Assembly (NCBI GenBank): GCA_965222605.1
Contig: OZ244960.1
Location: 5,696,001 to 5,760,000, forward strand
Reading direction: 5' to 3'
Length of the DNA: 64,000 bases
Source of the DNA: Candidatus Latescibacterota bacterium
Lineage (GTDB): Bacteria; Latescibacterota; UBA2968
Shown: positions 35,097-61,256 of the stretch, in pieces
Layout of the letters: each line of letters opens with the position of its first letter
Position numbering within the stretch: position 1 is the stretch's first letter
Translations under genes and position numbers: made by a program
The notes under the pieces: generated by a model
Seen by the model: only the letters and a program-made list of their open reading frames with translations
Databases searched by the model: none
Told to the model about the DNA's origin: nothing

Positions 35097-37253
35097 ATGA
35101 AAATACGTATTCTTTTTACTTTGTTGTCCTGTATCGCTCTTCTGGGAAGTATTTCCGAGGCGTCTGATTGGACGCACTGGCGCGGTCCTATGCAAAACGG
35201 CGCGTCGCCGGAGACAGGACTCATTTCTTCATGGTCTATAGCTGGCGAAAATCTGATCTGGCAGCGTGCATTTATCGGTAGATCTACACCGGTTATTGTA
35301 AATGGTCGGGTCTATGTTATCGGACGAACCGGCAAAGACATAACCGAGCAGGAGCACATCGCGTGTTTTGATGCCGAAACGGGCGATCTCGTGTGGGAAA
35401 AAAAGTTCAATGTCTGGCACTCGACCATTCCCTTCAACCGTCTCGGCTGGGCAAGCATGGGGGCCGATGGTGAAACCGGCAATATTTACGCCCATCTCGT
35501 CAATGGGTTATTGATCTGTTTTGATACCGATGGCTATGTCCAATGGCAGCGGTCTCTAACCGAAGAATTTAATCGATTCTCCGGTTATGGTGGGCGATTG
35601 CACACGCCCGTTGTCGATGGCGACCTGGTCATCATCAGCATGGGCAACCGAGGGTGGGCGGGCAAACCGCCTTCTCATCGGTATGTTGCCTTCAACAAAC
35701 ACACGGGTGAAACCGCGTGGATGGCTCGTCCAGGCGGCGGTGGACAGGTTGATTTAACCGTTTACTCTACGCCTGTTGTCACGACAATTGACGGGCAGCG
35801 CGCGTTGGTTGCCGGCAATGGCAATGGCGGTATTTTTGCCTTCAAAGTCGCAACGGGTGAAAAAGTGTGGGGATTTCCTCTCAGTAGGCGCGGTATCAAT
35901 ACTTCGCCCGCTGTGGCTGACAATCGCGTTTATGTCACGCACAGCGAAGAAAATGTCGATAATACCTCCCTTGGTCGCGTCACCTGTTTGGATGCGCGCA
36001 CGGGCAAAGAAATCTGGCGACAAGACGGTATGACTGTGGGCTATGCTTCGCCAGCGGTTCACGAGGGACGCGTCTATGTTATCGACAATTCGGCCAATGT
36101 GCATTGTTTGGACGCCAAGACGGGAAAGCAATATTGGGAGCAAAGTATCGGTACTGTGGGCAAGGGATCGCCGACATGGGCCGATGGCAAACTCTATGTT
36201 ACTGAAGTCAATGGCGGCTTCCAAATTCTCAAAACGAGCGATATGGGCGCGGAAGTGCTCGACAAAAAGAAAATCGCAATGCCTGAGGGCGGGCATGCCG
36301 AGATCTACGGGTCAGTCGCCGTTGCGTATCATCGCATCTATTTTGCGACCGAAGCAGGGTTGTTTTGTCTGGGCGATAAAAACGCGCGATTTGAAGTCAT
36401 GCCTTCTCCTCATGCAAAGCACGAAAGCGCGCCTTCGGGTGCCAAACCCGCATCTATTCTTTCTATTCCGGCTGAGACGACCATACAACAGGGCGAGGTA
36501 CTGCCCCTGCGGGCAGAGGCTTATGACGAAAAGGGTCGTTTGATCGGCAATGCCACTGCCGAGTGGTCGTTGAATGGCCTGGATGGAGAAATAAAGAACA
36601 ATCAGTTTGTACCATCCCGAGCGGGACAGGGCGGCTGGATCACGGCCAGGGTAGGTGAATTAACCCGACAAACCTGGGTGCGCGTGGTGCCCCCTTTGCC
36701 CTGGACAGAGGATTTTGAAAATGTCGAAGTCGGCAAAAACCCATTACACTGGGTGTGGGGGGGCAGGGGTTTCGCGGTGGAGGAAAAAGATGGCAACAAG
36801 GTACTGGCAAAACCCCCTGCTGCGCGCGGCTTAGATCGCTCAAATCTCTATGTGGCGCCGTACAAACTCAGTGGATATACGATTCAGGCCGATCTTATGG
36901 GTACGCAAAACAAGCGTCGTCGTCCCGATATGGGTCTCATTGCCCACCGCTATATCCTCGATCTTCAGGGCATTCACCAACGCCTCGAAGTTCGGTCGTG
37001 GTCGTCGGATTTGCGCATGGCAAAACGCATCGATTTTCACTGGGACATGGACGTGTGGTACACCATGAAAATGAGAGTTGATGTCGAAGGCGGTAAAGCC
37101 ATCGTTCGGGGCAAAGTTTGGAAAAAAGGCGATCCCGAACCCGATGCCTGGAGTATCGAAGTAGAAGATCCTCTGCCGATAGAAGAGGGCAGCCCCGCGC
37201 TTTATGGCTATTCACCCGCCACGATTTACTACGATAATGTGAAAATGTGGTAA
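35097..37253 (+). CDS. Secreted PQQ-like beta-propeller protein with C-terminal Ig-like and beta-sandwich domains
   Basis: Signal peptide, DWTHWRGP, repeated DAxTGxxxW blades, and about 270 aa of C-terminal extension. Confidence 0.8.
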   Translation: MKIRILFTLLSCIALLGSISEASDWTHWRGPMQNGASPETGLISSWSIAGENLIWQRAFIGRSTPVIVNGRVYVIGRTGKDITEQEHIACFDAETGDLVWEKKFNVWHSTIPFNRLGWASMGADGETGNIYAHLVNGLLICFDTDGYVQWQRSLTEEFNRFSGYGGRLHTPVVDGDLVIISMGNRGWAGKPPSHRYVAFNKHTGETAWMARPGGGGQVDLTVYSTPVVTTIDGQRALVAGNGNGGIFAFKVATGEKVWGFPLSRRGINTSPAVADNRVYVTHSEENVDNTSLGRVTCLDARTGKEIWRQDGMTVGYASPAVHEGRVYVIDNSANVHCLDAKTGKQYWEQSIGTVGKGSPTWADGKLYVTEVNGGFQILKTSDMGAEVLDKKKIAMPEGGHAEIYGSVAVAYHRIYFATEAGLFCLGDKNARFEVMPSPHAKHESAPSGAKPASILSIPAETTIQQGEVLPLRAEAYDEKGRLIGNATAEWSLNGLDGEIKNNQFVPSRAGQGGWITARVGELTRQTWVRVVPPLPWTEDFENVEVGKNPLHWVWGGRGFAVEEKDGNKVLAKPPAARGLDRSNLYVAPYKLSGYTIQADLMGTQNKRRRPDMGLIAHRYILDLQGIHQRLEVRSWSSDLRMAKRIDFHWDMDVWYTMKMRVDVEGGKAIVRGKVWKKGDPEPDAWSIEVEDPLPIEEGSPALYGYSPATIYYDNVKMW

Positions 37254-37285
37254 TTGTCATAACCCCTTACAGATAAAGGAATAAA

Positions 37286-38713
37286 ATGAAATTGAAACGA
37301 CTTTTGAGCGGATGTGCTATCGCTGGTCTGATTGCATCGGCTGGGATAGCCGAAGAGACCATGTGGGGATTTACTCCAGATCGCAACCTCGTATCAGACG
37401 CAAAAAATTTGCCGATGAGTTGGAATGTAGAAACGGGTGAAAACATCGCCTGGAAAGCAGATCTCGGCGCGCAGTCTTATGCCGGCCCCATCAGGATCGG
37501 TGGTAAAATATTTATGGGGACAAATAATCAGATCGCGCGCAATCCAAAAATCACGGGTGACAAGGGCGTGATCATGGCTTTTCAGGAATCCGATGGGAAA
37601 TTTCTGTGGCAAGCAGCGCATCCCAAGCTGCCCGCGGGGCGTGTCAATGACTGGCCGCAGCAAGGCATTTGTTCCACGCCTTATATTCGCGGGGATCGGA
37701 TGTATTATATCTCCAATCAATGTCACGTGGTGTGCGCGGATACAGAGGGTTTTTTGGATGGGGAAAATGATGGTCCATACACCGGGGAAGAGGATACGAG
37801 CGATATCGGCGTGGATATTATCTGGGAATACGATATGATGGAAGAGTTGGATGTGTTTCCACACAATCTGGCGACCTGTTCGCCCGTGGGAGCGGGGAAT
37901 CTCCTTTTTGTGATTACCGCCAATGGCGTCGATGAAGGCCATGTCGCTATTCCGTCGCCTCTGGCGCCCAGCTTTATTGCAATCGATCTCAATACGGGCG
38001 AACTGGTGTGGGAAAAAGACTATCCCGGCGAAAATATCTTGCACGGGCAGTGGTCCAATCCCGCTTATGGCGTCATCAATGGCAAGCCACAAGTGCTCTG
38101 TCCTGCAGGCGATGGCTGGATTTATGCGCTGGAACCTGCAACGGGCGATTTGATTTGGAAATTTGACTGCAATCCAAAAGACGCGGTGTGGGAGTTGGGC
38201 GGGCGCGGCACGCGCAATGCGATTATTTCCACCCCCGTTATTTACGATAACAAGGTTTTTATCGGCGTCGGGCAAGACCCGGAACACGGCGAGGGCATCG
38301 GACACCTGTGGGCTATTGATGCGACGGGTAGAGGCGATGTGACGGGTAGCCATGCAGTGTGGCACTTTGGCAATGAAGATTTCAACCGAACTATTTCAAC
38401 GGTGGGCATCAGCGATGGCCTGCTCTATGCGGCAGACCTCAGCGGTTTTGTCTATTGTCTCGATCTAAAAACCGGCACACAGCACTGGAAATACGACACA
38501 TTTGCCGCGGTATGGGGGTCACCTTTTGTCGCAGATGGGAAGGTGTATATTGGAGATGAAGATGGCGATGTGGCGATTTTGAAAGCCGGAACACAATTTG
38601 AACTGATCAACGAAATCAATATGGGTAGTGCCGTATATACCACGCCTATTGCAAAAGATGGCATGCTTTACATTGGCACGCGCAATACGTTGTATGCGAT
38701 TAAGGGCGAGTAG
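37286..38713 (+). CDS. Secreted PQQ-like beta-propeller protein
   Basis: Signal peptide, DLxTGxxxW blades, and His/acid-rich loop insertions. Confidence 0.8.
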   Translation: MKLKRLLSGCAIAGLIASAGIAEETMWGFTPDRNLVSDAKNLPMSWNVETGENIAWKADLGAQSYAGPIRIGGKIFMGTNNQIARNPKITGDKGVIMAFQESDGKFLWQAAHPKLPAGRVNDWPQQGICSTPYIRGDRMYYISNQCHVVCADTEGFLDGENDGPYTGEEDTSDIGVDIIWEYDMMEELDVFPHNLATCSPVGAGNLLFVITANGVDEGHVAIPSPLAPSFIAIDLNTGELVWEKDYPGENILHGQWSNPAYGVINGKPQVLCPAGDGWIYALEPATGDLIWKFDCNPKDAVWELGGRGTRNAIISTPVIYDNKVFIGVGQDPEHGEGIGHLWAIDATGRGDVTGSHAVWHFGNEDFNRTISTVGISDGLLYAADLSGFVYCLDLKTGTQHWKYDTFAAVWGSPFVADGKVYIGDEDGDVAILKAGTQFELINEINMGSAVYTTPIAKDGMLYIGTRNTLYAIKGE

Positions 38714-38726
38714 AAGGGGTCATAAT

Positions 38727-39815
38727 ATGGAAGTGTTGGCAACACCTTTTACCGATAAGGTCAAAGAAGCGCGCGATATCCTTGATGTCCATGTGCGCGA
38801 TATGGTCGCGTGGCATTTTGATCCCAATACGGGATGTCCGTTCTGGCTGGAATTTGCAGGGGAACTGGATTTTGATCCTCGCCGTGAAATCGGCGGGTAC
38901 AGCGATCTGAAATACCTCGGGCATTTCCAGGATGAATGGCTACGCGGGGGACCCGTGCGGCGATGGATCCCCAGGGGGAGTGAAGAAAAGCGGACTTATG
39001 TATTTGAGACGGGTGGCTCAACCGGTGTTCCCAAATATCGGATCAGCCAAAATGATTTTCAGATCGACTACGAAATTTTTAGCGAGCACCTCTCAGAAGA
39101 AACATTTCCGAGAGGTGCGGACTGGTTGATGCTGGGGCCAACAGGTCCCCGACGATTGCGCCTGGCTGTTGAATATCTTTGTCAGATTCGCGGTGGAATT
39201 TGTTTTCTCGTGGATCTCGATCCCCGATGGGTCAACAAGCTGATCAAGCGCGGCGCACTTCAGGAATTGGAGCTTTACAAAGCCCATGTTATCGATCAGG
39301 CACTCACTATTTTGCGCGCTAACGACAATGTGAAATGCATGTTCACAACTCCTGCGCTCCTGGAAGAATTGTGCGAAAAAATTTCTCTGCAAAAAGCCGG
39401 GATCAGCGGCATTTTTTGCGGCGGTACAGAGATGAATGCACAATTTAATCGGTTTGCGAGAGAGGAGCTTATCCCGGGCATCGATTTTGTTCCTACCTAC
39501 GGCAATACCCTGATGGGGCTGGCTTATTCCAAGCCGCTGGAACCTGAAGACAATTACGCGATTACTTACTATCCACCCGTGCCCCGCGCGTTTATCGAAT
39601 TGGTGAATCCAAATAATTCCGATGAAGTGGTCGATTACGACGAAGTTGGGCGCGTGATGCTCACGACGCTCACAAAAGAATTTTTTATGCCCCGATTTCT
39701 CGAACGCGACGAGGCCGAACGCGCCAAACCGATTGACGCTTATCCCTGGGATGGCGTGAGAAACCTGGGTCTGTTCTCCGAGTTGCAGGAATCTGTCGTT
39801 GTCGGGGTGTATTAA
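38727..39815 (+). CDS. EhpF/GriC-like truncated adenylate-forming enzyme (LuxE/PaaK-related)
   Basis: WHFDPNTGCPFW, P-loop ETGGSTGVPK, DLDPRWV, YGNTLMG, ERD. About 360 aa and lacks the ANL C-terminal domain. Confidence 0.7.
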   Translation: MEVLATPFTDKVKEARDILDVHVRDMVAWHFDPNTGCPFWLEFAGELDFDPRREIGGYSDLKYLGHFQDEWLRGGPVRRWIPRGSEEKRTYVFETGGSTGVPKYRISQNDFQIDYEIFSEHLSEETFPRGADWLMLGPTGPRRLRLAVEYLCQIRGGICFLVDLDPRWVNKLIKRGALQELELYKAHVIDQALTILRANDNVKCMFTTPALLEELCEKISLQKAGISGIFCGGTEMNAQFNRFAREELIPGIDFVPTYGNTLMGLAYSKPLEPEDNYAITYYPPVPRAFIELVNPNNSDEVVDYDEVGRVMLTTLTKEFFMPRFLERDEAERAKPIDAYPWDGVRNLGLFSELQESVVVGVY

Positions 39816-39837: not shown

Positions 39838-40977
39838 TCAGGGTAACCCCAACTCACGACAGAAGGTAGAAAACGGTAGAACGCGCGTGTTGTCTGCCGC
39901 GTTGCCGAAATCTTTTGTGCCCAGATGTACCTGGTAGAATCGCGAAATATCTGTTCGCTCCCTGAAGTACCTGCATGCGGGAGATGTCCCGCGCTCGCCA
40001 GTTTTGCACTCGACGGCAAATTCCGCATATCCATCGCGGAGAACGACAAAATCTACCTCGCGCTTGTCGGTATCGCGGATGAAGCGCAATTCCATGTCAT
40101 ATCCTTCAGTGTCTTCGACATAGTGGCAGTACTTCAGCAAGTGTCCGGCTACCATGTTCTCAAATCGGGCACCGCGGTCTGTTACGCGCGACCAGTCCCA
40201 GAAATATAGTTTTTTTTCTTTGCGTACGGCTCTGATCCTCTTTGCTCCAAACGGCGGAATGCGATAGCACAGGTACAGCCGTTCAAAGATCGCAAGCCAG
40301 CGTTCAACGGTTTCGTAAGCCACTTGCAAGAGTTTGCTGAGGCTATTGACCGAAAGCGGGGATCCCACGCAGGCGGGCAGGTGAGACAATAGCAGGTCCA
40401 GCATGGATACCTCTCGCACATTTTCCAGGTCACGGAGGTCTTCATAGATGACTCTTGTGGAATGCTCGCGTAGCCACCGGCGGTGAAATCGCGCCTCTCC
40501 CCTGAGAAAAGGCTCGGGGAAACCGCCAAATCTGAGTAATTGCGCCACGAGTGCGTTGTCTGGCTTCTGCCCGCATTCCATCAGGGTGAAGGGATGAAGA
40601 CGGTAATAGTGATACCGCCCCTGCAATGAGTCGCCGCCTTTGCGATAGTAGTCCAGCCGTGCCGAACCGGTGACAATAAAAGAAACGGATGTCTTGTTTT
40701 TGTCGAATAATCCCTTCATTAGATTTCGCCACAGCGCGTATTTGTGAATTTCATCGAAAATGATGCAAGTTTGTCCAGAAGGGAGTCTTCCCGCCAGAAT
40801 ATCCTCGCGATCGGCCAGTACATCCCAGTTCAGGTAGGCAGGTGACGACTCATTCTGGCCTTGCCCCAGTAGAGAGATTGCAAGTGTTGTTTTTCCAACC
40901 TGGCGCGGACCGCCGATGAATATCATCCTGTCTGCGATATCTGTTTTAATATGATCCATGATGTGGCGAGGTTCCAT
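39838..40977 (-). CDS. AAA_14 ATPase with a C-terminal DUF4143 (REase-like) domain
   Basis: GPRQVGKTT, FDEIH, TGSAR, SLQGR, GGFPE, REVDFV...ECK. Confidence 0.88.
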   Translation of the reverse strand: MEPRHIMDHIKTDIADRMIFIGGPRQVGKTTLAISLLGQGQNESSPAYLNWDVLADREDILAGRLPSGQTCIIFDEIHKYALWRNLMKGLFDKNKTSVSFIVTGSARLDYYRKGGDSLQGRYHYYRLHPFTLMECGQKPDNALVAQLLRFGGFPEPFLRGEARFHRRWLREHSTRVIYEDLRDLENVREVSMLDLLLSHLPACVGSPLSVNSLSKLLQVAYETVERWLAIFERLYLCYRIPPFGAKRIRAVRKEKKLYFWDWSRVTDRGARFENMVAGHLLKYCHYVEDTEGYDMELRFIRDTDKREVDFVVLRDGYAEFAVECKTGERGTSPACRYFRERTDISRFYQVHLGTKDFGNAADNTRVLPFSTFCRELGLP

Positions 40978-40999
40978 ACTTATCACCTTTCTCGCATGT

Positions 41000-41067
41000 C
41001 GTGAGTATTTTAGACTAAACCTTAATATACTCGTGAGCATTTTAGAGTCAATATGAAAATACTCACG
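41000..41067. promoter_or_regulatory. Tandem 32-bp palindromic units upstream of the AAA_14-DUF4143 gene (putative operator)
   Basis: 41001-41032 and 41033-41064 match at 25 of 32 positions. The outer perfect 12-bp inverted repeat is CGTGAGTATTTT/AAAATACTCACG. Confidence 0.55.
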
Positions 41068-41249: not shown

Positions 41250-42674
41250 ATGATTCACTTACCCATTTTACGTGCGGGAAAACCCTACACCAGCTTGAGC
41301 GTTCAGGAAGTCTCGCATATTCAAACTGGCGAGCCACTCGTTCAGGTCAGTCAGGCAAACCGGGGGCTGGTCGCGAAAGACTTGAATGCAGCCGCGGCGA
41401 ACAAACACGCGCTCGATAGGCTGAGTGTATCCGAACTTGCAGGTATGACCCGCGAAGCTGCGCGCTTATTTGCAGAAGCCGATTTGCCACTTGGCGATCA
41501 TATCCAGACGCCTGATGACTATGTCAAACAGGTGTCTGGCACAACGGGCATGCCCGAAGCTCTCTGCCGCGCGAATATGGAAAAAATTCGGCTCGTATGC
41601 ACGGAAATCGAAGCTATATTAGGGGGCCTCACGCGCGGGTTAGACCTCGCTGTGCTCGATGAGGGGTGGTACGATCAGGATGGTCGCTCTCTCAGCTATA
41701 TTTGTCAGGCCGATGCGCTCGGGGCCATTTTGCCGAGCAATTCGCCGGGGGTACACGCGCTGTGGGTTCCGTCCATACCGCTCAAAGTGCCTCTCGTTCT
41801 AAAACCCGGACGCGAAGAGCCATGGACGCCTTTCCGCATTGCACAGGCGTTCATCGAAGCGGGGTGTCCACCAGAAGCGTTTGGGTTCTATCCGACGGAT
41901 CACGGTGGCGCCACTGAAATTTTGCTTCGCTGCGGTCGTTCCATGCTCTTTGGGGGCGGGGCGACGGTTGCGCCCTGGCTGAGCGATCCCCGCGTGGAAA
42001 TTCACGGGCCGGGGCAGAGTAAGGTCATTATTGGCGAAGATATGATAGATCGCTGGGAAGACTGTCTCGACATCGCGGTTGCCTCGATTACTGCAAATGG
42101 TGGTCGTTCCTGCATCAATGCGTCGGGTGTGTGGGTTCCCGCGCATGGCAGAAAAATTGCCGAAGCACTCGCCGAGCGATTGGCAAAAATTGTCGGGAGA
42201 CCTCTATATGATCCAGAAGCGCAGATCGCCGCATTTACCAATCCCGCATTCGCCGATCAAATTTCGACAACGATAGACATTCATCTCATAACGTCAGGAG
42301 CCGAAGATCTGACCGAAAAAATTCGCGGTGATCGGCTGGTCGAGATCGATGGATTAAAATTTTTAAATCCCACTGTTGTCTGGTGTGATGATTTTGAACA
42401 TCCTCTCGCAAATACCGAATATCTGTTTCCATACGCGAGCGTGGTCGAAGTTCCTCAGTCGGAAATTCTGGACAGGATTGGACCGAGTCTCGTGGTGACA
42501 GCAATAACAGAAGACAGTACATTTATCGACAAATTGCTCAATTCGCCCCAGGTAGAACGCCTCAATGTGGGCGCAATTCCCACGCATCAGATCTCGTGGG
42601 ATCAACCACACGAGGGCAATTTGTTCGAACACTTGTATCGGCAGCGCGCGCTGCAATGGGCGAAACAGGCTTAG
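41250..42674 (+). CDS. Aldehyde-dehydrogenase-fold protein, GriD/EhpG-like acyl-AMP reductase
   Basis: LPSNSPGVH, LKPGREEP, catalytic NGGRSCINAS, EYLFP. EIHGPG stands in place of ELGG. Confidence 0.7.
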   Translation: MIHLPILRAGKPYTSLSVQEVSHIQTGEPLVQVSQANRGLVAKDLNAAAANKHALDRLSVSELAGMTREAARLFAEADLPLGDHIQTPDDYVKQVSGTTGMPEALCRANMEKIRLVCTEIEAILGGLTRGLDLAVLDEGWYDQDGRSLSYICQADALGAILPSNSPGVHALWVPSIPLKVPLVLKPGREEPWTPFRIAQAFIEAGCPPEAFGFYPTDHGGATEILLRCGRSMLFGGGATVAPWLSDPRVEIHGPGQSKVIIGEDMIDRWEDCLDIAVASITANGGRSCINASGVWVPAHGRKIAEALAERLAKIVGRPLYDPEAQIAAFTNPAFADQISTTIDIHLITSGAEDLTEKIRGDRLVEIDGLKFLNPTVVWCDDFEHPLANTEYLFPYASVVEVPQSEILDRIGPSLVVTAITEDSTFIDKLLNSPQVERLNVGAIPTHQISWDQPHEGNLFEHLYRQRALQWAKQA

Positions 42675-52003: not shown

Positions 52004-52018
52004 ACGGGATTGCTGTAT

Positions 52019-53825: not shown

Positions 53826-53840
53826 TTGAAAATAAAAACT

Positions 53841-54263
53841 ATGCACAGTGAATTTCACACCACACACAGAGTCGCGTTTTCCGATACGGACATGGCCGGG
53901 ATTGTACACTTTTCCCGGTTTTTTGTCTTTATGGAAGCGGCCGAGCACGCTTTTTTGCGCGCGTTGGGTACGAGTGTTTCAACAGAATGGGATGGGAATA
54001 AAATTGGATGGCCGCGGTTGGAGGCGACGTGTACATATCTCAGTCCGGCCGTATTTGAAGATGTGCTGGATATTCATCTGAAGGTGATACGGAAGGGTAC
54101 AAAATCGTTGACCTATCGGTTTGATTTTTTTCGCGGGGAAACGGCTATTGCCCGTGGAAAATTGAGCACGGTATGTTGTATATGCAATCCCGGCGAAAAA
54201 ATCAGGTCCATACCGATCCCAGATTTTATTGCGGAGCAAATTCAGATCGCGGATGAGAGGTGA
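53841..54263 (+). CDS. Hot-dog acyl-CoA thioesterase (4HBT/YbgC family)
   Basis: RVAFSDTDMAGIVHFSRF...E. Confidence 0.88.
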   Translation: MHSEFHTTHRVAFSDTDMAGIVHFSRFFVFMEAAEHAFLRALGTSVSTEWDGNKIGWPRLEATCTYLSPAVFEDVLDIHLKVIRKGTKSLTYRFDFFRGETAIARGKLSTVCCICNPGEKIRSIPIPDFIAEQIQIADER

Positions 54264-54276
54264 GAAGATGATTGAT

Positions 54277-54304
54277 CTGGATTCCGGCTTTTTCCGGAAT
54301 GACG
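54277..54304. repeat. dRS3/REP-like palindrome
   Basis: CTGG-ATTCCGG-CTTTTT-CCGGAAT-GACG, with a 20-bp ATTCC-N10-GGAAT core. Confidence 0.55.
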
Positions 54305-54316
54305 ATGGAGCACAAA

Positions 54317-54970
54317 ATGGCACTAAAAATTGAGCATCTTTCCAAACGCTTTGGCGATGTAAATGTTTTGCGGGATATATCTTTTGAAATGGCGGCGGGG
54401 CAATCGCTGAGTGTTATGGGACCTTCGGGGTCGGGAAAGAGTACCTTATTGCATGTGCTGGGTACGCTGGATCGACCATCTGAGGGAAGCCTTGAAATTG
54501 AAGGCCAGGATCCCTACGCATTGTCGGAAATCGAACTCGCGCGGTTTAGAAATCAGGGTATTGGATTTGTGTTTCAAGAGCACCATCTTTTGCCGCAATA
54601 CTCGGTTTTGGAAAATGTTTTGATCCCAACGCTGGCATTTAGAAATGGAGATGCGCGAGACCGCGCCCGAGAGATTATTGATCGCGTGGGCTTGTCGCAT
54701 CGCATTGATCATCGGCCCGCTGAATTATCTGGCGGCGAGCGACAGCGCACAGCTGTTGCGCGTGCCCTCATCAATTCCCCGGCATTGCTTTTGTGCGACG
54801 AGCCAACGGGTAGCCTGGATGGGGCGCGAGCAGAAGAAATAGCCGATCTGCTATTTGAGTTGCACAAGCGTGAAAATAATATTCTGATCTGCGCGACGCA
54901 CAGTACGGCACTGGCCCATCGCTTTGAGCGACGGTTTGATCTGCGGGGTGGAACGTGCGTCGAAGTCTGA
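54317..54970 (+). CDS. ABC transporter ATP-binding protein (LolD/MacB type)
   Basis: GPSGSGKST, GFVFQ, LSGGE, CDEPTG. Confidence 0.93.
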   Translation: MALKIEHLSKRFGDVNVLRDISFEMAAGQSLSVMGPSGSGKSTLLHVLGTLDRPSEGSLEIEGQDPYALSEIELARFRNQGIGFVFQEHHLLPQYSVLENVLIPTLAFRNGDARDRAREIIDRVGLSHRIDHRPAELSGGERQRTAVARALINSPALLLCDEPTGSLDGARAEEIADLLFELHKRENNILICATHSTALAHRFERRFDLRGGTCVEV

Positions 54971-57900
54971 TCTATTTCTGGCGAATTAATCTGGCTGTTG
55001 TGCTCGGTGTGGCAGTGGCTACGGCTGTTCTGACGGGTGCTTTGATCGTGGGCGATTCCGTGCGCGGCAGCTTGCGGGATTTGTCGCTGAATCGCCTGGG
55101 AAAAATTGATCACGCCCTGGTATCCGAGCGATTTTTTCGCGCGAGTCTGGGACGCGATCTCGAGCGTGAACTCGACACTCAAGATGTTGTATCGGCCATT
55201 AGCTTGAGTGGAACGGCTGTTCACGCGGGATCGAATACGCGGGCTTCTCGCGTGCAGATTCAGGGTATTGATAATCGCTTTGCAAATCTGTTTGATCAAA
55301 TATTGCCCGAGTTGACGAGCGAGGGAATATTCCCGCCGGTTATTGTCAACGAATCCCTCCAAAAAGAACTCAACGCACAGATTGGCGATGCCATTCTGCT
55401 GTCTTTTGAGCAATCAGATGATATTCACCGCGAATCGCTATTTGGACGTGCTGATGATGCGGTTCAAACAATTCGACTGACACTTGCGGCCGTGCTTCCA
55501 GATAGGGGAATGGGGCGCTTTGGCCTGTTCGCCCGCCAGACGGTTCCTTTTAATGCGTATCTGTCGTTGCCGGTTTTGCAAAAAGCGTTGGGTCAAAGAG
55601 GCCGCGTGAATACATTGCTGGTGTCGGGTGATCCTGATACAGACGTTCAGGAAGCACTTTCCCGCGTTGCAACGCCCGATGATCTCGGCATTGTCATCCG
55701 CCGAGAGGCCGATTATTTCGCTATTGAGAGCACGCAGTTTATTCTCAAATCCCATATCGCGGAAACTATTCAAAAAGTATCTGCCGAATTAAATGCGCCT
55801 CACATGTCCATTCTCACCTATCTGGCGAATACCACACAGGTGGGGAAAAGAGAACTGCCCTATTCTACAATTTCTGCGTTAGATGTTGGAAATCTGGGGG
55901 ATTTTCAGCTTGTAGATGGGTCACTACAACTCGGGGAAGATGATATTTTGCTGAACACCTGGGCGGCTGAGGATTTAAACGCACGGGTTGGCGATGAAGT
56001 CAAAGTTGCCTATTACGAAGTCGCGCCTGGGGAAGAACTTCTGACCCGTTGGGCGCCATTCCAACTCAAGGGTATTGTGGCAATGGCGGGATTGGGGGCG
56101 GATGAAAAGTTGTCTCCCGACTATCCGGGCCTGGGCGATACGAATAATATGGCCGATTGGGAGGCCCCTTTTCCCATAGACCTGAGTCGTGTTCGTCCCA
56201 AAGACGAAGCGTATTGGGACACTTATCGCGATGCGCCAAAAACCTTTGTGTCTGCCGCGACTGGACAGCGATTGTGGAGAAGTCGATTTGGCGTATTAAC
56301 CGCTGTACGCATTGGGGCTATTGCGGGGCGGGATATTGAAATGACAGCAAAGCTATTTGAGGATAGCTTGCGCAAAAACATCGCGCCCGAATCGGTTGAC
56401 CTGACATTTCAGCCTATCAAACAGCAGGGCCTGGTCGCTTCTACGGGGGCAACGGACTTTAGCGGACTGTTTATTGCATTCAGTCAATTCCTGATCATCT
56501 CCGCAGCACTCCTGGTCGGATTATTATTTCGCCTGAGTGTGGAGCAGCGGGGCAGAGAAGTCGGGATGCGGATGGTATCGGGATATACGGGAAAAAAAAT
56601 TCGCCGACTCTTTAGCCGTGAGGGCCTTGTGCTGGCCGGTGTGGGTGGCATCTTGGGGCTGGTAGGCGGTGTTTTCTACGCTTATCTGATTACGGTGGGA
56701 TTGCGTACTTATTGGGTGGGCGCGGTTGGGACGTCTGATCTCTCGCTTCACATCCACACATCAAGTCTGTTATTGGGATATGCCATTTCACTAATCGTGA
56801 TCCTGTTGGCAATCTGGCTCACGCTCCGCCGGTTGGGCAATATTTCTGTTCGCGCATTATTATCGGGTATTACGGAAGTGGTGCGCGCAAAGCCGCGCAC
56901 AAAATGGTATGCTCTGGGCAGCCTCATCCTCGCCGCGCTCAGTCTGGGGGGGGGCGCGACGGTGGATCCATCAACGGGTACAGGTTTGTTTTTTGTTAGT
57001 GGCGCGCTGTGGATGGTTGCGGGGTTGTGCTTTCTCTCGGTCTGGTTTAGACGCGGGCATCGCGCCATAAGAGAAGGTATTGTTGGCATGGGGGTGCAAA
57101 ATAGCAAGCGGCAGCCCGCGCGCAGTTTGCTGTGTGCCTCACTCATCGGATGTGCGTGTTTTGTCATTGTTGCAGTAGGCGCGAATAGGCGAACTGATCT
57201 GACTCAAAATATCGCGCAAGACAAAGCTTCTGGTACGGGCGGCTTTGCCCTTATCGCTGAAGTTGATGTGCCGATTTATCAGGATTTTAATTCAAAAGAC
57301 GGGCAATTTGAACTCGGATTTTCGCAGGCAGATACAGAACTCTTAAATCAAGCGCGGTTCATCCCGCTGCGCGTTTTGCCCGGGGAAGATGCGAGTTGTC
57401 TCAATCTTTATCAGCCCGAAAGCCCGCGTGTTTTGGGGGTTCCCGAAGCTCTACGTCAGCGAGGTGGTTTTACATTTCAGCAAACGAGCACCGAAGTAGA
57501 AAATCCCTGGACTCTATTATCCGAGGATTTGGGCGCAGATGTGATTCCGGCAATTGGGGATTATAATTCGGCTATGTGGATTTTGCACAAGCAATTGGGC
57601 GATGATATTGTGTTGCAGAATGAAATGGGGGAGACTGTCAAGCTGAGATTGGTGGGCTTGTTAAAGACGAGTATTTTTCAAAGTGAATTGCTGATTTCCG
57701 AAGACAATTTTTTGCGACATTTTCCCGACCAAAGTGGGTATGGTGCTTTTCTCGTTGAAACACAACAACCCGTTCAGCTTACTGTGCTTGTGGAAAGCAG
57801 ATTAAAAGACATCGGGTTAGACGCCGTATCCACAGCGCAAAAACTCGCGCATTTTCAGGAGGTCGAAAATACGTATCTCTCCACCTTTCAAACACTGGGG

Positions 57901-58254
57901 GGATTGGGCCTGCTGTTGGGTACGATCGGATTGGGAATCGTCCTGTTGAGAAATGTTATTGAAAGACGCGGTGAATTGGCCGTTCTTCGCGCCTTTGGCT
58001 TTCGCCGCGCTGTGTTGTCGCGCATGTTGCTCGCGGAGAATGGTTTTTTAATGTTCGTGGGCCTGGCTATCGGCAGCGTCTCTGCGCTTATTGCCGTAGC
58101 GCCCCATGTCATAAGCTATGGTGCGTTAATTCCATGGGGATCACTGGGCCTCACACTCGTCATCATATATGGCGCGGGTCTCATCGCAAGTGCGATAGCC
58201 GTTTTCTTCGCCCTGCGAGCACCTTTATTGCCCGCATTGAAACAGGAGATGTGA
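54955..58254 (+). CDS. Large FtsX/MacB-type ABC permease (two permease repeats)
   Basis: Two TM-periplasmic-TM modules (EQRGREVG and ERRGELAVLRAFGF). The GTG start overlaps the ATPase gene. Confidence 0.88.
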   Translation: MRRSLIYFWRINLAVVLGVAVATAVLTGALIVGDSVRGSLRDLSLNRLGKIDHALVSERFFRASLGRDLERELDTQDVVSAISLSGTAVHAGSNTRASRVQIQGIDNRFANLFDQILPELTSEGIFPPVIVNESLQKELNAQIGDAILLSFEQSDDIHRESLFGRADDAVQTIRLTLAAVLPDRGMGRFGLFARQTVPFNAYLSLPVLQKALGQRGRVNTLLVSGDPDTDVQEALSRVATPDDLGIVIRREADYFAIESTQFILKSHIAETIQKVSAELNAPHMSILTYLANTTQVGKRELPYSTISALDVGNLGDFQLVDGSLQLGEDDILLNTWAAEDLNARVGDEVKVAYYEVAPGEELLTRWAPFQLKGIVAMAGLGADEKLSPDYPGLGDTNNMADWEAPFPIDLSRVRPKDEAYWDTYRDAPKTFVSAATGQRLWRSRFGVLTAVRIGAIAGRDIEMTAKLFEDSLRKNIAPESVDLTFQPIKQQGLVASTGATDFSGLFIAFSQFLIISAALLVGLLFRLSVEQRGREVGMRMVSGYTGKKIRRLFSREGLVLAGVGGILGLVGGVFYAYLITVGLRTYWVGAVGTSDLSLHIHTSSLLLGYAISLIVILLAIWLTLRRLGNISVRALLSGITEVVRAKPRTKWYALGSLILAALSLGGGATVDPSTGTGLFFVSGALWMVAGLCFLSVWFRRGHRAIREGIVGMGVQNSKRQPARSLLCASLIGCACFVIVAVGANRRTDLTQNIAQDKASGTGGFALIAEVDVPIYQDFNSKDGQFELGFSQADTELLNQARFIPLRVLPGEDASCLNLYQPESPRVLGVPEALRQRGGFTFQQTSTEVENPWTLLSEDLGADVIPAIGDYNSAMWILHKQLGDDIVLQNEMGETVKLRLVGLLKTSIFQSELLISEDNFLRHFPDQSGYGAFLVETQQPVQLTVLVESRLKDIGLDAVSTAQKLAHFQEVENTYLSTFQTLGGLGLLLGTIGLGIVLLRNVIERRGELAVLRAFGFRRAVLSRMLLAENGFLMFVGLAIGSVSALIAVAPHVISYGALIPWGSLGLTLVIIYGAGLIASAIAVFFALRAPLLPALKQEM

Positions 58255-58260
58255 GGCGCG

Positions 58261-59796
58261 TTAATTTATATTCTTGAGTGCGAGTTCATAGCACGCCGCT
58301 TCCCTGTCGTTTCTCACGAGTAGATAGGGTGCGGCAAGTGTGGGGCTATTCCATGTGTGGTTGCTTAGAGCGGGGAAGCGCGCGCGTTCATTGTGTTCAA
58401 TTGGCGAGGCATCGACGAGTACGATATCGCCCGATTCGGTTTGGATGAGCAAAAGGTCATCTACCAGGATGAGTTGCCCATGCCCATAGCGCCCTCGTTT
58501 CCATTTTCGCTGTCCGTCTGCGAGATCCAAACACACGAGGACGCCATCGTCCAGTCCGTAAATATATCCGTCTTTGTGAACCATATTGGCAAATTTGGCT
58601 TTGAGGCGGGGGCTTTTCCATATTCGGTCGGCTGTAAATTCATCCTGGCTATTTTTTTCAATTTGAATCAGTTCGCAACCAATGCCATAACCGGCCGATA
58701 CAAAGACGCGGTCTCCAGACAGTGGGATGGGTTGGGCAACGTGTTGCGTCATCCCGCTATACCAGGGATATTCCCATAGCAACTTGCCGGAAACTGGATT
58801 GTGACCCGCAACCTGCCCATTGTTAAAAATGATCACTTGATCCATTCCCGCTATGGCAGTTAAACTCGGCGAGCTATGACCCGCTCTTGCATGGCCACCT
58901 CCCCAAATAATATCACCGGTTTCGCGGTGGTATGCCATCAGCGATTGCTCGTTTTGTCCGCCCGGACTCACGATCACTTTGTCGTCTAAAACGAGGGGTG
59001 AACCGCTCATGCCCCATTCTTTAACGCGCGCACCGGTTTCTTTCACGGTATCGCGCGACCAGATTTCTCTACCGGTTTCCAAATCGAGACAGGTGAGGAT
59101 GCCGGTTCCGCCAAAAGAATAAACGCGGTTGCCCGATATGGTGGGCGTGGCTCGCGGACCAATCCCGGCAATCGCGGTTTCATATCGCGCGCGCGCGCTG
59201 TGACGCCATTTCTCTTTTCCGGTTAAAAGGTCGTAACAAGCTACGGTTTCGTCTTCGCCTTTTTGCTCTTGAGTCACGGCAGAGCGTCCAACAACGGCAA
59301 AGGCAGAATAGGCTTCACCAACGGGTACGCGCCAGAGTAGCCTGGGGGGATTTTGATCCCAGTCGGATTCCAGCTCTATTCCTTCGAGCGTGGCGTTGCG
59401 ATGTGGCCCCAAAAATTGAGGATAGTCTATGTCGGGGCCATCTGAAAATTGTCTCGCCACAGATATCGATGTAACAGAAGACCAGCGCCACTCTATCTTG
59501 GGAGCTAAATCGCCCGTAAAACCGCGAATTTGAAATAATGAAACTGTCAGGATGATCAGGAGTATAAGAATACTTAGACCCCGCAGGCGAATTGTCCGAC
59601 TCGCTTGGGAAAAAGCAAAGAACCAGAGACAGAGTAAAATAGAGCCGATTGAGCAAATCAGTATCGTCGGCATAACTTGCATCTGGCGGTCTGGTCTGTC
59701 GGGAATCCAGATCGCCGATAATACAATGATCATTAACGCGGCGATAGAGATAGCGGGCCACCATCGAATGGGTTTGGGATAAAGCGGAGCAGGCAT
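58261..59796 (-). CDS. Membrane-anchored PQQ-like beta-propeller protein
   Basis: Three N-terminal TMs, DYPQFLGPHRN, GPRATP, LDLETGREIW blades. Confidence 0.8.
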   Translation of the reverse strand: MPAPLYPKPIRWWPAISIAALMIIVLSAIWIPDRPDRQMQVMPTILICSIGSILLCLWFFAFSQASRTIRLRGLSILILLIILTVSLFQIRGFTGDLAPKIEWRWSSVTSISVARQFSDGPDIDYPQFLGPHRNATLEGIELESDWDQNPPRLLWRVPVGEAYSAFAVVGRSAVTQEQKGEDETVACYDLLTGKEKWRHSARARYETAIAGIGPRATPTISGNRVYSFGGTGILTCLDLETGREIWSRDTVKETGARVKEWGMSGSPLVLDDKVIVSPGGQNEQSLMAYHRETGDIIWGGGHARAGHSSPSLTAIAGMDQVIIFNNGQVAGHNPVSGKLLWEYPWYSGMTQHVAQPIPLSGDRVFVSAGYGIGCELIQIEKNSQDEFTADRIWKSPRLKAKFANMVHKDGYIYGLDDGVLVCLDLADGQRKWKRGRYGHGQLILVDDLLLIQTESGDIVLVDASPIEHNERARFPALSNHTWNSPTLAAPYLLVRNDREAACYELALKNIN

Positions 59797-59900: not shown

Positions 59901-59945
59901 GAACCTCTGAATTGCGAAATATCACATCACAGAAAGGAGTTTGCG

Positions 59946-61256
59946 ATGAAGAAATGGTTTTGGATTTTGATGGGTTTTTGTCTCATTCCGATTCTGGTTC
60001 AGGCAAAACACCATGCGGTGCAGGAGACACACAACTGGCCCCACTGGCGCGGGCCGAATGCAAATGGCCTCGTGGATACGGGCAATCCCCCCGTGGAATG
60101 GAGCGAGAGTACCAATATTCGCTGGAAAACAAAAATCCCGGGTACGGGGTACGCTACGCCCATTGTATGGGGCGATAAAATTTTTGTCCAGACGGCGATT
60201 AAGACCGACAAAACCGTAGAAGTCGCCCAGAAAGGCAAAAAGCCTTTGCCCTCTCATATCTATCAATTTAAGCTACTTGCACTGGATCGCAAAAGTGGTG
60301 ATGTGGTGTGGGAAAAGACCGTGAGCGAGGCGGTGCCCCACGAAGGTACCCATAAAACGTCTAATTATGCTTCCACATCGGGTGTTACAGATGGCGAACA
60401 CCTGTACGCATTTTTCGGTTCCTGGGGGTTGTATTGCTTTGATTTCGACGGCAATTTGAAATGGGATAAGGACCTGGGCGATATGAGAGTTGCAGGCTCT
60501 TTTGGAGAAGGCACATCACCGACCATTCACGGCAATACGCTGATTATCAACTGGGATCACCAGGGCGATTCGTTTATTGTCGCGCTGGATAAACGCACGG
60601 GTGAGGAAATCTGGCGTACGGCGCGACCGGAGAGAACGTCGTGGAGCACGCCCATGGTTGTCGAACACAAGGGTACGCAACAGATTATTGTGAGCGCGAG
60701 CAAAAAAACCCGTAGTTACGACCTCAAAACCGGCGATGTCTTATGGGAATGCGCGGGATTGGGTACAAATGTCATTCCCACGCCCGTCTATGCCGATGGC
60801 ATCGTGTATGTTACAAGCGGTCATAGACAGCCAGCCATGCAGGCGATTTCACTCGACAAAGCCAAGGGCGATATCACGGGTACAGATGCCGTACTGTGGG
60901 CAGTTACTGGTAATACCCCTTATGTTTCTTCGCCCCTTCTTTCCGGAAACAATATTTATTGCATGAAAAGTACCAGGAACATCTTGTCCTGTTACAATGC
61001 TAAAACAGGCGAAACAGTTTTCGGTCCAGCACGACTCCAGGGATTGGGAAAAATATACTCTCCGCTGGTTGGCACAGGCGACCGCGTGTACATCGCCGGG
61101 ATGGACGGCGTGACATTTGTGATCAAGAACAGCACTAAATTGGAAGTGCTCGCACAAAACAAACTCGACGAGGGTACCAGCGCATCTCCCATTATCGTGG
61201 GCGACGAGTTGTATTTGCGCGGTACCGAACACCTCTATTGTATTGCGGAAAATTGA
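59946..61256 (+). CDS. Secreted PQQ-like beta-propeller protein
   Basis: Signal peptide, NWPHWRGP, LDKRTGEEIW, SWSTP, ASP. Confidence 0.82.
   Translation: MKKWFWILMGFCLIPILVQAKHHAVQETHNWPHWRGPNANGLVDTGNPPVEWSESTNIRWKTKIPGTGYATPIVWGDKIFVQTAIKTDKTVEVAQKGKKPLPSHIYQFKLLALDRKSGDVVWEKTVSEAVPHEGTHKTSNYASTSGVTDGEHLYAFFGSWGLYCFDFDGNLKWDKDLGDMRVAGSFGEGTSPTIHGNTLIINWDHQGDSFIVALDKRTGEEIWRTARPERTSWSTPMVVEHKGTQQIIVSASKKTRSYDLKTGDVLWECAGLGTNVIPTPVYADGIVYVTSGHRQPAMQAISLDKAKGDITGTDAVLWAVTGNTPYVSSPLLSGNNIYCMKSTRNILSCYNAKTGETVFGPARLQGLGKIYSPLVGTGDRVYIAGMDGVTFVIKNSTKLEVLAQNKLDEGTSASPIIVGDELYLRGTEHLYCIAEN

Follow-up and report, generated by a model that had tools for sequence, protein, structure and literature searches.

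A run of biosynthetic-type genes set among five pyrroloquinoline quinone (PQQ)-like beta-propellers raises the question of whether these genes form a single pathway and, if so, what that pathway acts upon. The run lies at positions 35037-61256 of a 64,000-nt stretch of Candidatus Latescibacterota bacterium (assembly GCA_965222605.1, contig OZ244960.1, positions 5,696,001-5,760,000 of the forward strand), the whole of which is referred to below as the window. An earlier annotation, here called the sequence-only reading, had listed its genes as a cluster for an undescribed cofactor or metabolite. Gene calls based on a listing of open reading frames (ORFs) and on Pfam and NCBIfam scans of 22 ORFs recover every gene on that list in the order given (Table 1), together with three inserted genes that the list does not mention: a DUF4143 ATPase, a RelE/ParE toxin and a TPR ORF. 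The start assigned to the cluster in that reading, position 35097, is an in-frame ATG at residue 21 of the ORF 35037-37253; it stands directly before the signal peptide and is likely the true start.

The cluster is a real conserved unit across several little-studied phyla, and constitutes a widely conserved pathway built from known enzyme families. Its purpose can be proposed more tentatively. At somewhat less than even chances, the genes at 35037-58254, probably together with a TRAP importer at 61343-64000, form a conserved multi-module pathway tailoring a small aromatic or heteroaromatic carboxylic acid. The plus-strand run of genes stops at 58254, where the gene of propeller 4 converges on it (propellers are numbered in their order along the window). 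The order of the steps, the substrate, the product and the role of the propellers are what we infer from the genes observed, from how they are conserved and which families they belong to, and from the computed model of a reductase complex. The observation behind the sequence-only reading is thereby confirmed, and its interpretation is supported in part. The hub gene of the cluster, encoding a radical S-adenosylmethionine (SAM) enzyme, is present in at least 599 species-level genomes from four to five poorly studied phyla, with a neighbourhood kept across phyla and conservation at the levels of core metabolism. Were the molecule found, a function could be given to the recurrent flavin halogenase of sponge symbionts and their free-living relatives, as well as to a new clade of the HemN family and to one or more families of the abundant secreted PQQ-like propellers.

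The radical SAM gene and its neighbourhood

The radical SAM gene starts with the ATG at 44897, which overlaps the stop codon of the preceding gene as ATGA; it is translationally coupled to that gene, which encodes the secreted BamB-like propeller 3. The enzyme shares with HemN, HemW, ChuW/HutW and the class C methyltransferases the radical SAM core, the HemN_C domain, and the CxxxCxxC and GGGTP motifs, both of which are found among the invariant columns of an alignment of 34 sequences. Unlike HemN, HemW and ChuW/HutW, it remains below all curated cut-offs (184.8 bits against 324.95 for the hemN model TIGR00538, 182.9 against 400 for HutW and 169.4 against 205.4 for HemW) and always occurs in a non-haem context. 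The match to the HemN model begins at profile position 21, and the structures matched are HemN (1olt, 114.6 bits) and the methyltransferase NocN (89 bits). Relatives of the enzyme fill more than 120 database clusters at 62-95% identity. Within its own clade the identity ranges from 51 to 95%, against 25-28% to annotated plasmid HemN/HemW proteins, which are the only homologues found on plasmids; the plasmid search gave no orthologue. Judged by these comparisons, the enzyme represents a distinct HemN-family clade, and its gene is the hub of a conserved neighbourhood. A role of the cluster in haem or tetrapyrrole tailoring was considered and rejected: the TonB receptor is not of the haem type (72.5 bits against a cut-off of 316.85 for the hemin model), and none of the propellers carries a CxxCH motif.

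The extent of the neighbourhood was assessed in a scan of one genome per species with the alignment of 34 radical SAM relatives, which returned at least 599 relatives. The best 80 of these, with flanks of up to 10 kb on each side, serve as the sample of loci. Window proteins were mapped to stop-to-stop ORFs by blastp at an E value of 1e-8 or lower, and an ORF was counted as an orthologue when the best-matching window protein gave an identity of 35% or more and a coverage of 25% or more. The counts obtained (Table 1) are lower bounds, many contigs being short and distal genes lying beyond the 10-kb flank. By record title, the sample comprises Planctomycetota (38 loci), Acidobacteriota (14), Poribacteria (12), Latescibacterota (8), Verrucomicrobiales (1) and 7 other or unassigned loci; one of the latter, L024, belongs to Thermoanaerobaculia and raises the Acidobacteriota to 15.

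The co-occurrence in other genomes, on which the sequence-only reading had been staked, is found in this sample, where the neighbourhood recurs across four to five phyla. The radical SAM gene is mostly preceded by the genes of an iron-containing alcohol dehydrogenase (Fe-ADH) and of a GriC/GriD-type carboxylate reductase, and a propeller ORF ends no more than 700 bp upstream of it in 60 of the 80 loci, 74 of which have at least 1.2 kb of upstream sequence. Its partners fall into two sets: propeller 3, Fe-ADH and carboxylate reductase make up the first, and halogenase, ligase and thioesterase the second. In L032, genes for the radical SAM enzyme, the halogenase and a canonical AMP-binding enzyme are consecutive. 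Because the radical SAM gene keeps both sets of partners, a single aromatic-acid scaffold would be expected to pass through all of the steps.

Latescibacterota and Thermoanaerobaculia share a colinear arrangement of the genes (L001, L002, L004, L024, L027, L029 and L031). Between phyla the order is shuffled and the gene set stays together. Vicinamibacteria (L053, L067 and L078) have the order radical SAM, halogenase, thioesterase, PaaK, TAXI-TRAP; the Verrucomicrobiales locus has radical SAM, halogenase, GT4, thioesterase; and in the planctomycete L052 the FtsX, LolD and thioesterase genes are found upstream on the opposite strand, adjoining the EhpF-like gene. These arrangements bear on the possibility that unrelated operons merely lie side by side in the window, one with reductase, ADH, propeller and radical SAM genes, another with TonB and PaaK genes, and a third with halogenase, GT4, thioesterase and ABC genes. 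Mobile genes do split the window cluster at two junctions, and most Planctomycetota loci lack the accessory modules. However, the modules rejoin in varied orders and orientations across phyla (L052, L057, L060 and L062; Latescibacterota, Acidobacteriota, Planctomycetota and a Verrucomicrobiales metagenome-assembled genome), and the non-cluster neighbours of the window, which provide an internal negative control, are kept in only 0-1 of the 80 loci. Chance adjacency of the modules is therefore highly improbable.

A maximum likelihood tree of 79 radical SAM sequences, comprising the window and 78 loci (L049 and L070 were dropped for coverage below 90%), follows taxonomy: it requires 8 label changes, against a minimum of 6 and a mean of 34.6 for shuffled labels, and the window groups with Latescibacterota. 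Inheritance therefore appears to be mostly vertical, with a few transfers. One example of transfer is the placement of Vicinamibacteria, Terriglobia and Verrucomicrobiales near Planctomycetota.

About 20 of the 38 Planctomycetota loci (Pirellulales, within L036-L080; e.g. L039 11284-12871) carry two extra genes directly 3' of the radical SAM gene. The first encodes a GcvH-like protein (94.3 bits, GcvH cut-off 117) and the second a 368-aa protein with a 4Fe-4S dicluster domain.

Table 1. Features of the window, with their coordinates, strand, basis of assignment, and the number of the 80 sampled loci that hold an orthologue.
Feature	Coordinates	Strand	Basis and remarks	Loci
Propeller 1	35037-37253	+	PQQ_2 126.5 bits; C-terminal Ig-like and ConA-like jelly-roll region	8
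Propeller 2	37286-38713	+	PQQ_2 85.6 bits; secreted, BamB-like	9
EhpF/GriC-like adenylating subunit (putative)	38727-39815	+	PDB EhpF 3l2k; starts at ATG 38727	25
AAA_14/DUF4143 ATPase	39838-41040	-	Pfam; between EhpF-like and ALDH genes	1
GriD/EhpG-like ALDH-fold reductase subunit (putative)	41250-42674	+	Aldedh 55.5 bits	31
Iron-containing (group III) alcohol dehydrogenase	42678-43793	+	Fe-ADH 155.3 bits, ADH_Fe_C 124.2 bits	52
Propeller 3	43800-44900	+	Beta-prop_ACSF4 210 bits, PQQ_2 148.8 bits; eight-blade type	57
HemN-family radical SAM enzyme	44897-46243	+	Radical_SAM and HemN_C	
TonB-dependent outer-membrane receptor, siderophore-receptor subfamily	46420-48540	+	TIGR01783 248.3 bits	16
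PaaK-family aryl/arylacetate-CoA ligase	48544-49812	+	AMP-binding_C_2 68.2 bits	22
RelE/ParE-family toxin	49892-50230	+	TIGR02683 129 bits (cut-off 62.85); Gp49	1
177-aa TPR ORF, overlapping the toxin gene	50200-50733	+	Pfam TPR	1
Flavin-dependent halogenase, phenol/pyrrole 'variant B' type	50744-52003	+	Trp_halogenase 91.8 bits	28
GT4 glycosyltransferase	52010-53320	+	Glycos_transf_1 107.6 bits	10
163-aa five-segment membrane protein, EamA/DMT-like half transporter	53334-53825	+	Hydrophobic segments; Atlas look-alikes	3
4HBT/YbgC-type hotdog acyl-CoA thioesterase	53826-54263	+	4HBT_2 43.5 bits, 4HBT 41.8 bits	14
LolD-like ABC ATPase	54272-54970	+	ABC_tran 120.9 bits	10
1099-aa duplicated FtsX/MacB-type permease	54955-58254	+	FtsX twice and MacB_PCD	8
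Propeller 4, membrane-anchored	58261-59796	-	PQQ_2 107.2 bits; separate convergent transcription unit	4
Propeller 5, secreted, WPHWRGP	59946-61256	+	PQQ_2 83.2 bits	0
TAXI solute-binding protein	61343-62296	+	TIGR02122 271.1 bits (cut-off 84.35)	11
Fused TRAP permease	62321 to window end, open	+	TIGR02123 532.7 bits (cut-off 320.65)	
AAA_21 ATPase and 166-aa partner	1784-3561	-	PADLOC PDC-M07A (325 bits) and PDC-M07B (153.2 bits)	
Low-GC island	22000-32000		GC 0.41-0.47 against about 0.51	
Type I restriction-modification S subunit	24644-26056		Low-GC island	
PD-T7-4-like DUF4145 protein	26120-26887		260.9 bits; low-GC island	
IS200-like ORF	26918-27445		Low-GC island	
PIN-domain ORF	27550-27951		Low-GC island	
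Restriction-modification methyltransferase	27948-30203		Low-GC island	
IS66 transposase	30524-31993		Low-GC island	
DUF6785/DUF6784 membrane protein and PhyH-family dioxygenase	32090-34878	-	Directly upstream of the cluster	0

Candidate enzymes of aromatic-acid tailoring

In the EhpF/EhpG pair of Pantoea agglomerans, which belongs to D-alanylgriseoluteic acid, EhpG is the partner subunit of a two-protein aryl-carboxylate reductase. The EhpF-like protein of the window matches the EhpF structure 3l2k over residues 12-348 of 362 (E 6.6e-44). Its best 120 database clusters are 72-89% identical, the few relatives with a named source being from Poribacteria, KSB1, Calditrichia and Acidobacteria, and tblastn finds homologues of 32-37% identity in 29 plasmid records, annotated as 'arylcarboxylate reductase', 'phenazine antibiotic biosynthesis protein' or 'AMP-binding protein'. 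In Streptomyces goshikiensis and Halalkalicoccus, a gene of the aldehyde dehydrogenase (ALDH) family comes next after the EhpF homologue. The ALDH-like protein of the window aligns with both of these partners over the full length (30% identity and E 3e-41 for S. goshikiensis, 26% and E 4e-33 for Halalkalicoccus), and scores 39 bits against generic ALDH structures. Its catalytic cysteine C288, as well as N164, is invariant in 28 orthologues. In structure prediction, the complex of the two proteins scored 0.76, against 0.02 for the best control. Of 157 solved complexes, 116 come up to this mark, as do 2 of 215 mismatched pairs; these counts serve only as a rough guide here, the alignments being custom ones. 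The prediction runs share at least 79% of contacts, and the pLDDT (predicted local distance difference test) of the partner is at least 91. The EhpF-like protein is thus predicted to bind its ALDH-like partner, the model supporting this binding without showing it.

Together, the two proteins are predicted to act as a GriC/GriD-type two-protein aryl-carboxylate reductase, and the pairing made in the sequence-only reading holds in the structure match, the full-length homology of the partner, the invariant cysteine and the modelled complex. GriC is described as forming an acyl-AMP, which GriD reduces to the aldehyde (PMC10179220). As in GriC/GriD, which belong to grixazone in Streptomyces griseus, and as in EhpF/EhpG, a short adenylating protein of the EhpF type, without the C-terminal domain customary in the ANL superfamily, is followed by an ALDH-fold partner. 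The two genes are split in the window by the inserted ATPase gene and contiguous in L003 and L004. The window pair differs in its distance from the actinomycete, Pantoea and haloarchaeal copies (32-37% identity), in its placement beside an Fe-ADH, a secreted propeller and a HemN-family radical SAM enzyme, and in that Pfam finds no genes for 3-amino-4-hydroxybenzoic acid (3,4-AHBA) or the phenazine core in the window. A fatty-acid reductase of the LuxC/LuxE type was rejected as an alternative identity, as Pfam gives no LuxC or LuxE family match and the EhpF match is strong. The Fe-ADH falls below every NCBIfam equivalog cut-off. Being compact, a carboxylate reductase of this two-protein kind has practical interest as a biocatalyst. 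In four Poribacteria loci (L007 5528-6244; also L005, L009 and L016), a 239-aa ORF lies between the EhpF-like and ALDH genes and displays weak similarity to Vgb-lyase/SGL-type beta-propellers (32.2 bits, under the cut-off).

The flavoprotein described as halogenase-like in the sequence-only reading carries all of the signature motifs of flavin halogenases. Structure alignments reveal GxGxxG (as GGGPAG), WxWxIP (as FWYIP) and GDAxxFxDP, along with a lysine in FVKKYS that is aligned to the YVKKPS of CmlS; GxGxxG, the active-site lysine and the WxWxIP residues have recognised functional roles in these enzymes. The closest structural matches are 8zop (E 9.8e-68, 232 bits) and CmlS (E 1.7e-53), and the CmlS, Mpy16, CndH and PltA structures score 180-185 bits. 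A protein-modifying flavoenzyme of the QhpG/LodB type was rejected, the respective models giving 134 and 127 bits (cut-offs 240 and 400) against 227 bits for CmlS. By fold and motifs, the protein resembles the carrier-dependent phenol and pyrrole halogenases PltA, Bmp2/Mpy16, CmlS and CndH. Unlike these, it has no acyl or peptidyl carrier protein in the window, for which Pfam was run over 47 main and 21 leftover ORFs of at least 45 aa, 68 ORFs in all. The same scan agrees with the sequence-only reading in finding no genes for polyketide synthases (PKS), nonribosomal peptide synthetases (NRPS), acyl carrier proteins, the phenazine core or pqq.

The place of the carrier protein may be taken by coenzyme A (CoA), to which the PaaK-like ligase would attach the acid as a thioester and from which the hotdog thioesterase would release it. 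The ligase scores 234-257 bits against PaaK models with cut-offs of 646-700 and matches the PaaK structure 4r1l (E 1.3e-58). The thioesterase scores 59.5 bits against TIGR00051 (cut-off 68.7), and its gene adjoins those of the halogenase and PaaK in the three Vicinamibacteria loci.

Under the preferred reading, an aromatic acid would either be imported through the TonB receptor, TRAP or SSF systems or be drawn from primary metabolism. The PaaK-like ligase would convert it into a CoA thioester, with CoA as the carrier for the 'variant B' flavin halogenase, and the hotdog thioesterase would then free the halogenated acid. The EhpF-like/ALDH-like pair would reduce the carboxylate to an aldehyde, and the Fe-ADH the aldehyde to an alcohol. 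The radical SAM enzyme would methylate the ring or form another C-C bond on it. In some lineages, the GT4 enzyme would glycosylate the product, and the EamA-like half transporter and the LolD/FtsX ABC system would carry it into the periplasm, to be bound or processed by the secreted propellers, of which propeller 1 has a lectin-like domain.

Several observations weigh against this scheme. Among the window ORFs scanned with Pfam there is no scaffold-building aromatic enzyme, and none of the 68 ORFs is recognised as a flavin reductase partner for the halogenase. Neither in the window nor in the 7 related loci searched with Rfam does a riboswitch or regulator hint at a ligand. Planctomycetota loci retain the genes for the reductase, the ADH, the propeller and the radical SAM enzyme, and have the halogenase and the PaaK-like gene within 10 kb in only 1 of 38 loci each; due to this near-absence, halogenation and CoA activation are accessory rather than essential. 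The GT4, EamA-like and ABC transporter genes are present in just 3-10 of the 80 loci, in part because of the flank limit. Importers are slightly commoner than the exporter (TAXI 11, SSF 8 and TonB 16 loci, against 10 for LolD-like and 8 for FtsX), and uptake or salvage therefore fits as well. The EhpF-like protein is about 75% identical between phyla, which is unusual for a specialised metabolite. Lastly, no catalytic constellation or conserved polar pocket is evident in 51 relatives of propeller 3, in which the invariant positions are mostly structural glycine, tryptophan and aspartate residues.

The preferred pathway reading also has to be set beside a kind of cluster described in silico. 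Loureiro et al. (bioRxiv 2026, doi 10.64898/2026.08.03.742642) applied to sponge and seawater metagenomes a custom antiSMASH rule combining a halogenase with an AMP-binding enzyme, specifically a PF04820 match of at least 10 bits with an AMP-binding match no more than 5 kb away. The available text of the preprint reports 840 such Halo_AMP clusters, none of which groups with a MIBiG entry, and the preprint describes 20 groups. The clusters come from Acidobacteriota, Latescibacterota and Poribacteria, frequently contain genes for PQQ-like domains, glycosyltransferases, thioesterases, radical SAM enzymes, TonB and ABC transporters and toxin-antitoxin systems, and are proposed to have an ecological role in sponge microbiomes. 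The window halogenase exceeds the 10-bit threshold with its 91.8 bits. The PaaK-like gene ends 0.9 kb upstream of it, with a PF00501 score of 28.1 bits (Pfam cut-off 29.9). The window thus resembles the Halo_AMP clusters in having a flavin halogenase near an AMP-binding or PaaK-like enzyme, and in the accessory genes and phyla. In view of the preprint, a cluster of this kind is partly known, in silico only; our literature search returned no experimental work on the cluster and the preprint as the sole related paper. The designation 'undescribed' in the sequence-only reading hence calls for qualification. As presented in the available text, the Halo_AMP study is sponge-centred, is defined by halogenase and AMP-binding genes, and focuses on a P450-containing group. 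The window has no P450; its conserved hub joins the radical SAM/propeller pair to a carboxylate reductase and an ADH, and reaches into halogenase-less Planctomycetota. The assignment of the carboxylate reductase, the radical SAM/propeller hub and the extension to these Planctomycetota go beyond that text.

It is conceivable, though decidedly improbable, that the window holds an orphan metabolite cluster of the Halo_AMP type, producing a halogenated aryl amide or ester with an antibiotic or deterrent role, with the propellers as bystanders or as resistance or handling proteins. The accessory genes in which the preprint's clusters are enriched, the closeness of the halogenase to the PaaK-like gene, and a weak match of the PaaK-like protein to the ester-forming BagE/FevW model (113 bits) agree with such a product. 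However, the most conserved part of the neighbourhood consists of the reductase, ADH, propeller and radical SAM genes and persists in Planctomycetota without the halogenase. Cross-phylum identities of 60-75% and trees that follow taxonomy are, moreover, atypical of specialised metabolites.

Transport genes and propellers

The import genes recur beside the enzymes, in keeping with the imported or primary aromatic acid of the sequence-only reading. TAXI orthologues of 59-70% identity follow the halogenase or PaaK-like gene at a distance of no more than about 1.5 kb in 7 of 12 Poribacteria and 4 of 14 Acidobacteriota loci, and in 8 other loci an SSF symporter occupies the equivalent place, between the halogenase and GT4 genes. 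The TAXI-TRAP genes at 61343-64000, beyond the range considered in the sequence-only reading, therefore likely belong to the neighbourhood, with a probable role in carboxylate import. The TonB receptor is present in 8 of 8 Latescibacterota loci, its remaining 8 loci being from Acidobacteriota (7 of the 14 so labelled, and L024).

Uptake and conversion of an exogenous aromatic carboxylate, for salvage, detoxification or partial catabolism and with no exported product, could account for these genes as well. The acid would enter by the TonB, TRAP or SSF route and be converted in the cytoplasm by the PaaK-like ligase, the carboxylate reductase and the ADH. In accord with this are the TAXI-TRAP genes in 11 of the 80 loci and the SSF symporter in 8, an SSF symporter gene that directly precedes the EhpF-like/ALDH pair in Halalkalicoccus, and the lack of a scaffold-forming enzyme in the window. 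We nevertheless consider this explanation unlikely. The window ORFs scanned include no genes for ring cleavage, no genes of the beta-oxidation type and no regulators of aromatic catabolism; the halogenase, the GT4 enzyme and the extractor-type ABC system have biosynthetic or export functions; and deep, mostly vertical conservation is unlike the patchiness of catabolic islands.

The export side comprises the LolD-like ATPase (240.1 bits against LolD TIGR02211, cut-off 307.75) and the permease, which has about ten hydrophobic segments, two large loops and a MacB-type periplasmic domain, and matches a single solved structure, that of YtrF, weakly (E 0.0029). The small membrane protein has five hydrophobic segments and no Pfam match, and its look-alikes in the Atlas are EamA/DMT permeases (score 0.97). 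The GT4 protein reaches no NCBIfam equivalog, and its PDB matches are weak, generic and confined to the C-terminal domain.

A MacB-type ABC exporter is paired with a TonB receptor in siderophore systems such as pyoverdine PvdRT-OpmQ/FpvA. The window combines in one cluster a LolD-like ATPase, a permease with FtsX and MacB_PCD domains and a TonB receptor of the siderophore subfamily. In contrast to the PvdRT-OpmQ/FpvA type, it has no genes for an outer-membrane channel or a siderophore synthetase, nor a membrane-fusion protein gene among the ORFs scanned with Pfam; the permease, a duplicated form of 1099 aa, bears hardly any resemblance to FtsX proteins of solved structure. The cluster might thus serve a metallophore cycle, in which a phenolic or catechol-like chelator is made without NRPS or NRPS-independent siderophore (NIS) synthetases and exported by the MacB/FtsX-type ABC system, and its metal complex is taken up again through the TonB receptor and TRAP or SSF importers. 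This has a low probability in our view, despite the fact that exporter and importers share the cluster. The receptor passes the siderophore-receptor cut-off (TIGR01783, 248.3 bits against 223.5), and the best equivalog is the catecholate receptor Fiu, whose model it matches with 176 bits, far under that model's cut-off. In 16 of the 80 loci it is encoded inside the operon, and the available text of the Halo_AMP preprint remarks on the usual association of TonB transporters with metallophore clusters (doi 10.64898/2026.08.03.742642). Yet none of the 68 window ORFs is recognised as an NRPS, an NIS or other siderophore synthetase or an enzyme forming a chelating group, and no locus from Planctomycetota (0 of 38) or Poribacteria (0 of 12) has a TonB receptor next to the core. 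A metallophore would also leave the propellers without a role. The E. coli Fur-box consensus has no match within 3 mismatches, which is weak evidence, as the consensus comes from a distant phylum.

The sequence-only reading had the cluster built around all five propellers. This is borne out for propellers 1-3, which recur; the relatives of propeller 4 are just 33-38% identical, and propeller 5 has none at 35% identity or more. The closest related locus, L001, ends before the position of propeller 5. Propeller 4 orthologues at that identity are limited to 4 of the 80 loci; in many loci, L002 among them but not the window, the radical SAM gene is followed by a propeller 4 paralogue of 32-38% identity. 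Secretion, likewise claimed for all five, is suggested by N-terminal hydrophobic segments, except that propeller 4 has three N-terminal membrane segments instead. The WxxWRGP motif is exact in two of the five (propellers 1 and 5), propeller 3 having WSRFRGD; the WxxWRG portion is located at the extreme N-terminus of the mature protein.

Propeller 1 has a signal-peptide-like segment at residues 21-39, and its orthologues are 43-92% identical in the 8 loci that hold one, a number limited by the flanks. The predicted model of its C-terminal 289 aa comprises an Ig-like domain and a ConA-like jelly roll (pLDDT 83.4), for which the best compact Foldseek match is CBM66 4b1m (TM score by target 0.65-0.69). 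Propeller 2 has a signal-peptide-like N-terminus, and wherever the flank is long enough its orthologues have propeller 1 and the EhpF-like gene as neighbours. Propeller 3 has a signal peptide, with an N-terminus ending in VHA/EEW and no lipobox cysteine; at 231.5 bits it stays below the equivalog cut-off of BamB TIGR03300 (285.2), and it lacks the lipoprotein signal of BamB. A signal-peptide-like N-terminus is present in 32 of its 51 relatives, start calls being crude, and in these relatives R26 of the N-terminal WxxFRG strand is invariant, as is C191, and W22 is nearly so. The propeller domains measure about 370-480 aa and are thus BamB-sized, propeller 1 having the extra C-terminal region, and their closest structures are BamB and designed PQQ-repeat proteins. 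All five score 25-89 bits against the PQQ-dehydrogenase model TIGR03075, the cut-off of which is 480.

The constancy of propeller 3 beside the radical SAM gene raises the possibility that the reductase-ADH-radical SAM core makes an aromatic cofactor or prosthetic ligand, which is loaded onto the BamB-like propellers in the periplasm and renders them functional. Propeller 3 is coupled to the radical SAM gene, a propeller stands directly upstream in the 60 loci noted above, and in three phyla the EhpF-like gene is accompanied by propellers 1 and 2. Very high conservation and mostly vertical inheritance would be as expected of cofactor genes, pqq genes are lacking in the window, and the number of propellers per locus varies from one to five. 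On the other hand, the propellers are of BamB size and far from the PQQ-dehydrogenase cut-off, the relatives of propeller 3 lack conserved pocket-like polar residues, and propellers are missing altogether from L032 and L033, two acidobacterial loci that do have the radical SAM and halogenase genes. We therefore regard a cofactor pathway as doubtful. A more specific form of it, in which the reductase, Fe-ADH and radical SAM genes represent an ancient and mostly vertically inherited core of Planctomycetota, Acidobacteriota, Latescibacterota and Poribacteria that makes an aromatic cofactor or ligand for the propellers, with halogenase, GT4 and transport as lineage-specific decorations, is rather improbable. 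If true, it would explain the large families of 'empty quinoprotein-like' propellers in these PQQ-less phyla.

Outside the neighbourhood, relatives of propeller 3 occur in other protein contexts. The longer relatives include double propellers (44-52% identity). Others form the C-terminal domain of extracytoplasmic function (ECF) sigma factors (41-46%, 4 proteins, domain order checked in 2), or are part of BlaR1-type M56 transducers (40-41%, 3 proteins, 1 checked) and of Ser/Thr kinases (30-35%, 4 proteins, from precomputed Pfam domains only). This suggests that elsewhere this type of propeller may act as an extracytoplasmic binding or sensing domain, in line with the binding role given to the propellers in the preferred reading. 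The fusions to ECF sigma regions 2 and 4 or to BlaR1-type proteins are P0297, P0305, P0309, P0314, P0284, P0293 and P0311. Two further single database proteins, P0333 and P0271, mirror the gene order of the window, with a partial Fe-ADH and a propeller joined in one, and a propeller and a TonB plug domain in the other; these joins may be gene-calling read-throughs rather than true fusions.

Insertions and flanking genes

The DUF4143 ATPase and the toxin/TPR pair are found, among the 80 loci, only in the relative of the window locus that is 95% identical to it (L001), and are lineage-specific insertions, the ATPase gene lying outside the conserved cluster. The ATPase matches the PADLOC candidate defence family PDC-S01 (165.7 bits). 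In L002 (93%), the junction between the EhpF-like and ALDH genes contains two DUF3857/transglutaminase-like genes instead (L002 2316-6194), and in L003 and L004 the junction has no insert. This junction is an insertion hotspot. The toxin gene is overlapped by the TPR ORF rather than by a recognisable helix-turn-helix antitoxin gene.

Rfam searches at gathering thresholds give no match in the window or in 7 related loci, and promoter and terminator scans are at background (32 against 22.1 ± 5.3 expected, and 30 against 24.0 ± 4.4, with a similar second run). Across the 80 loci, neither of the two genes directly upstream of the cluster is kept in the vicinity of the radical SAM gene. Further upstream, the low-GC island contains the restriction-modification genes, the PD-T7-4-like protein, the PIN-domain ORF and the IS200-like and IS66 genes listed in Table 1, and at the beginning of the window an AAA_21 ATPase and its partner match a PADLOC candidate defence pair.

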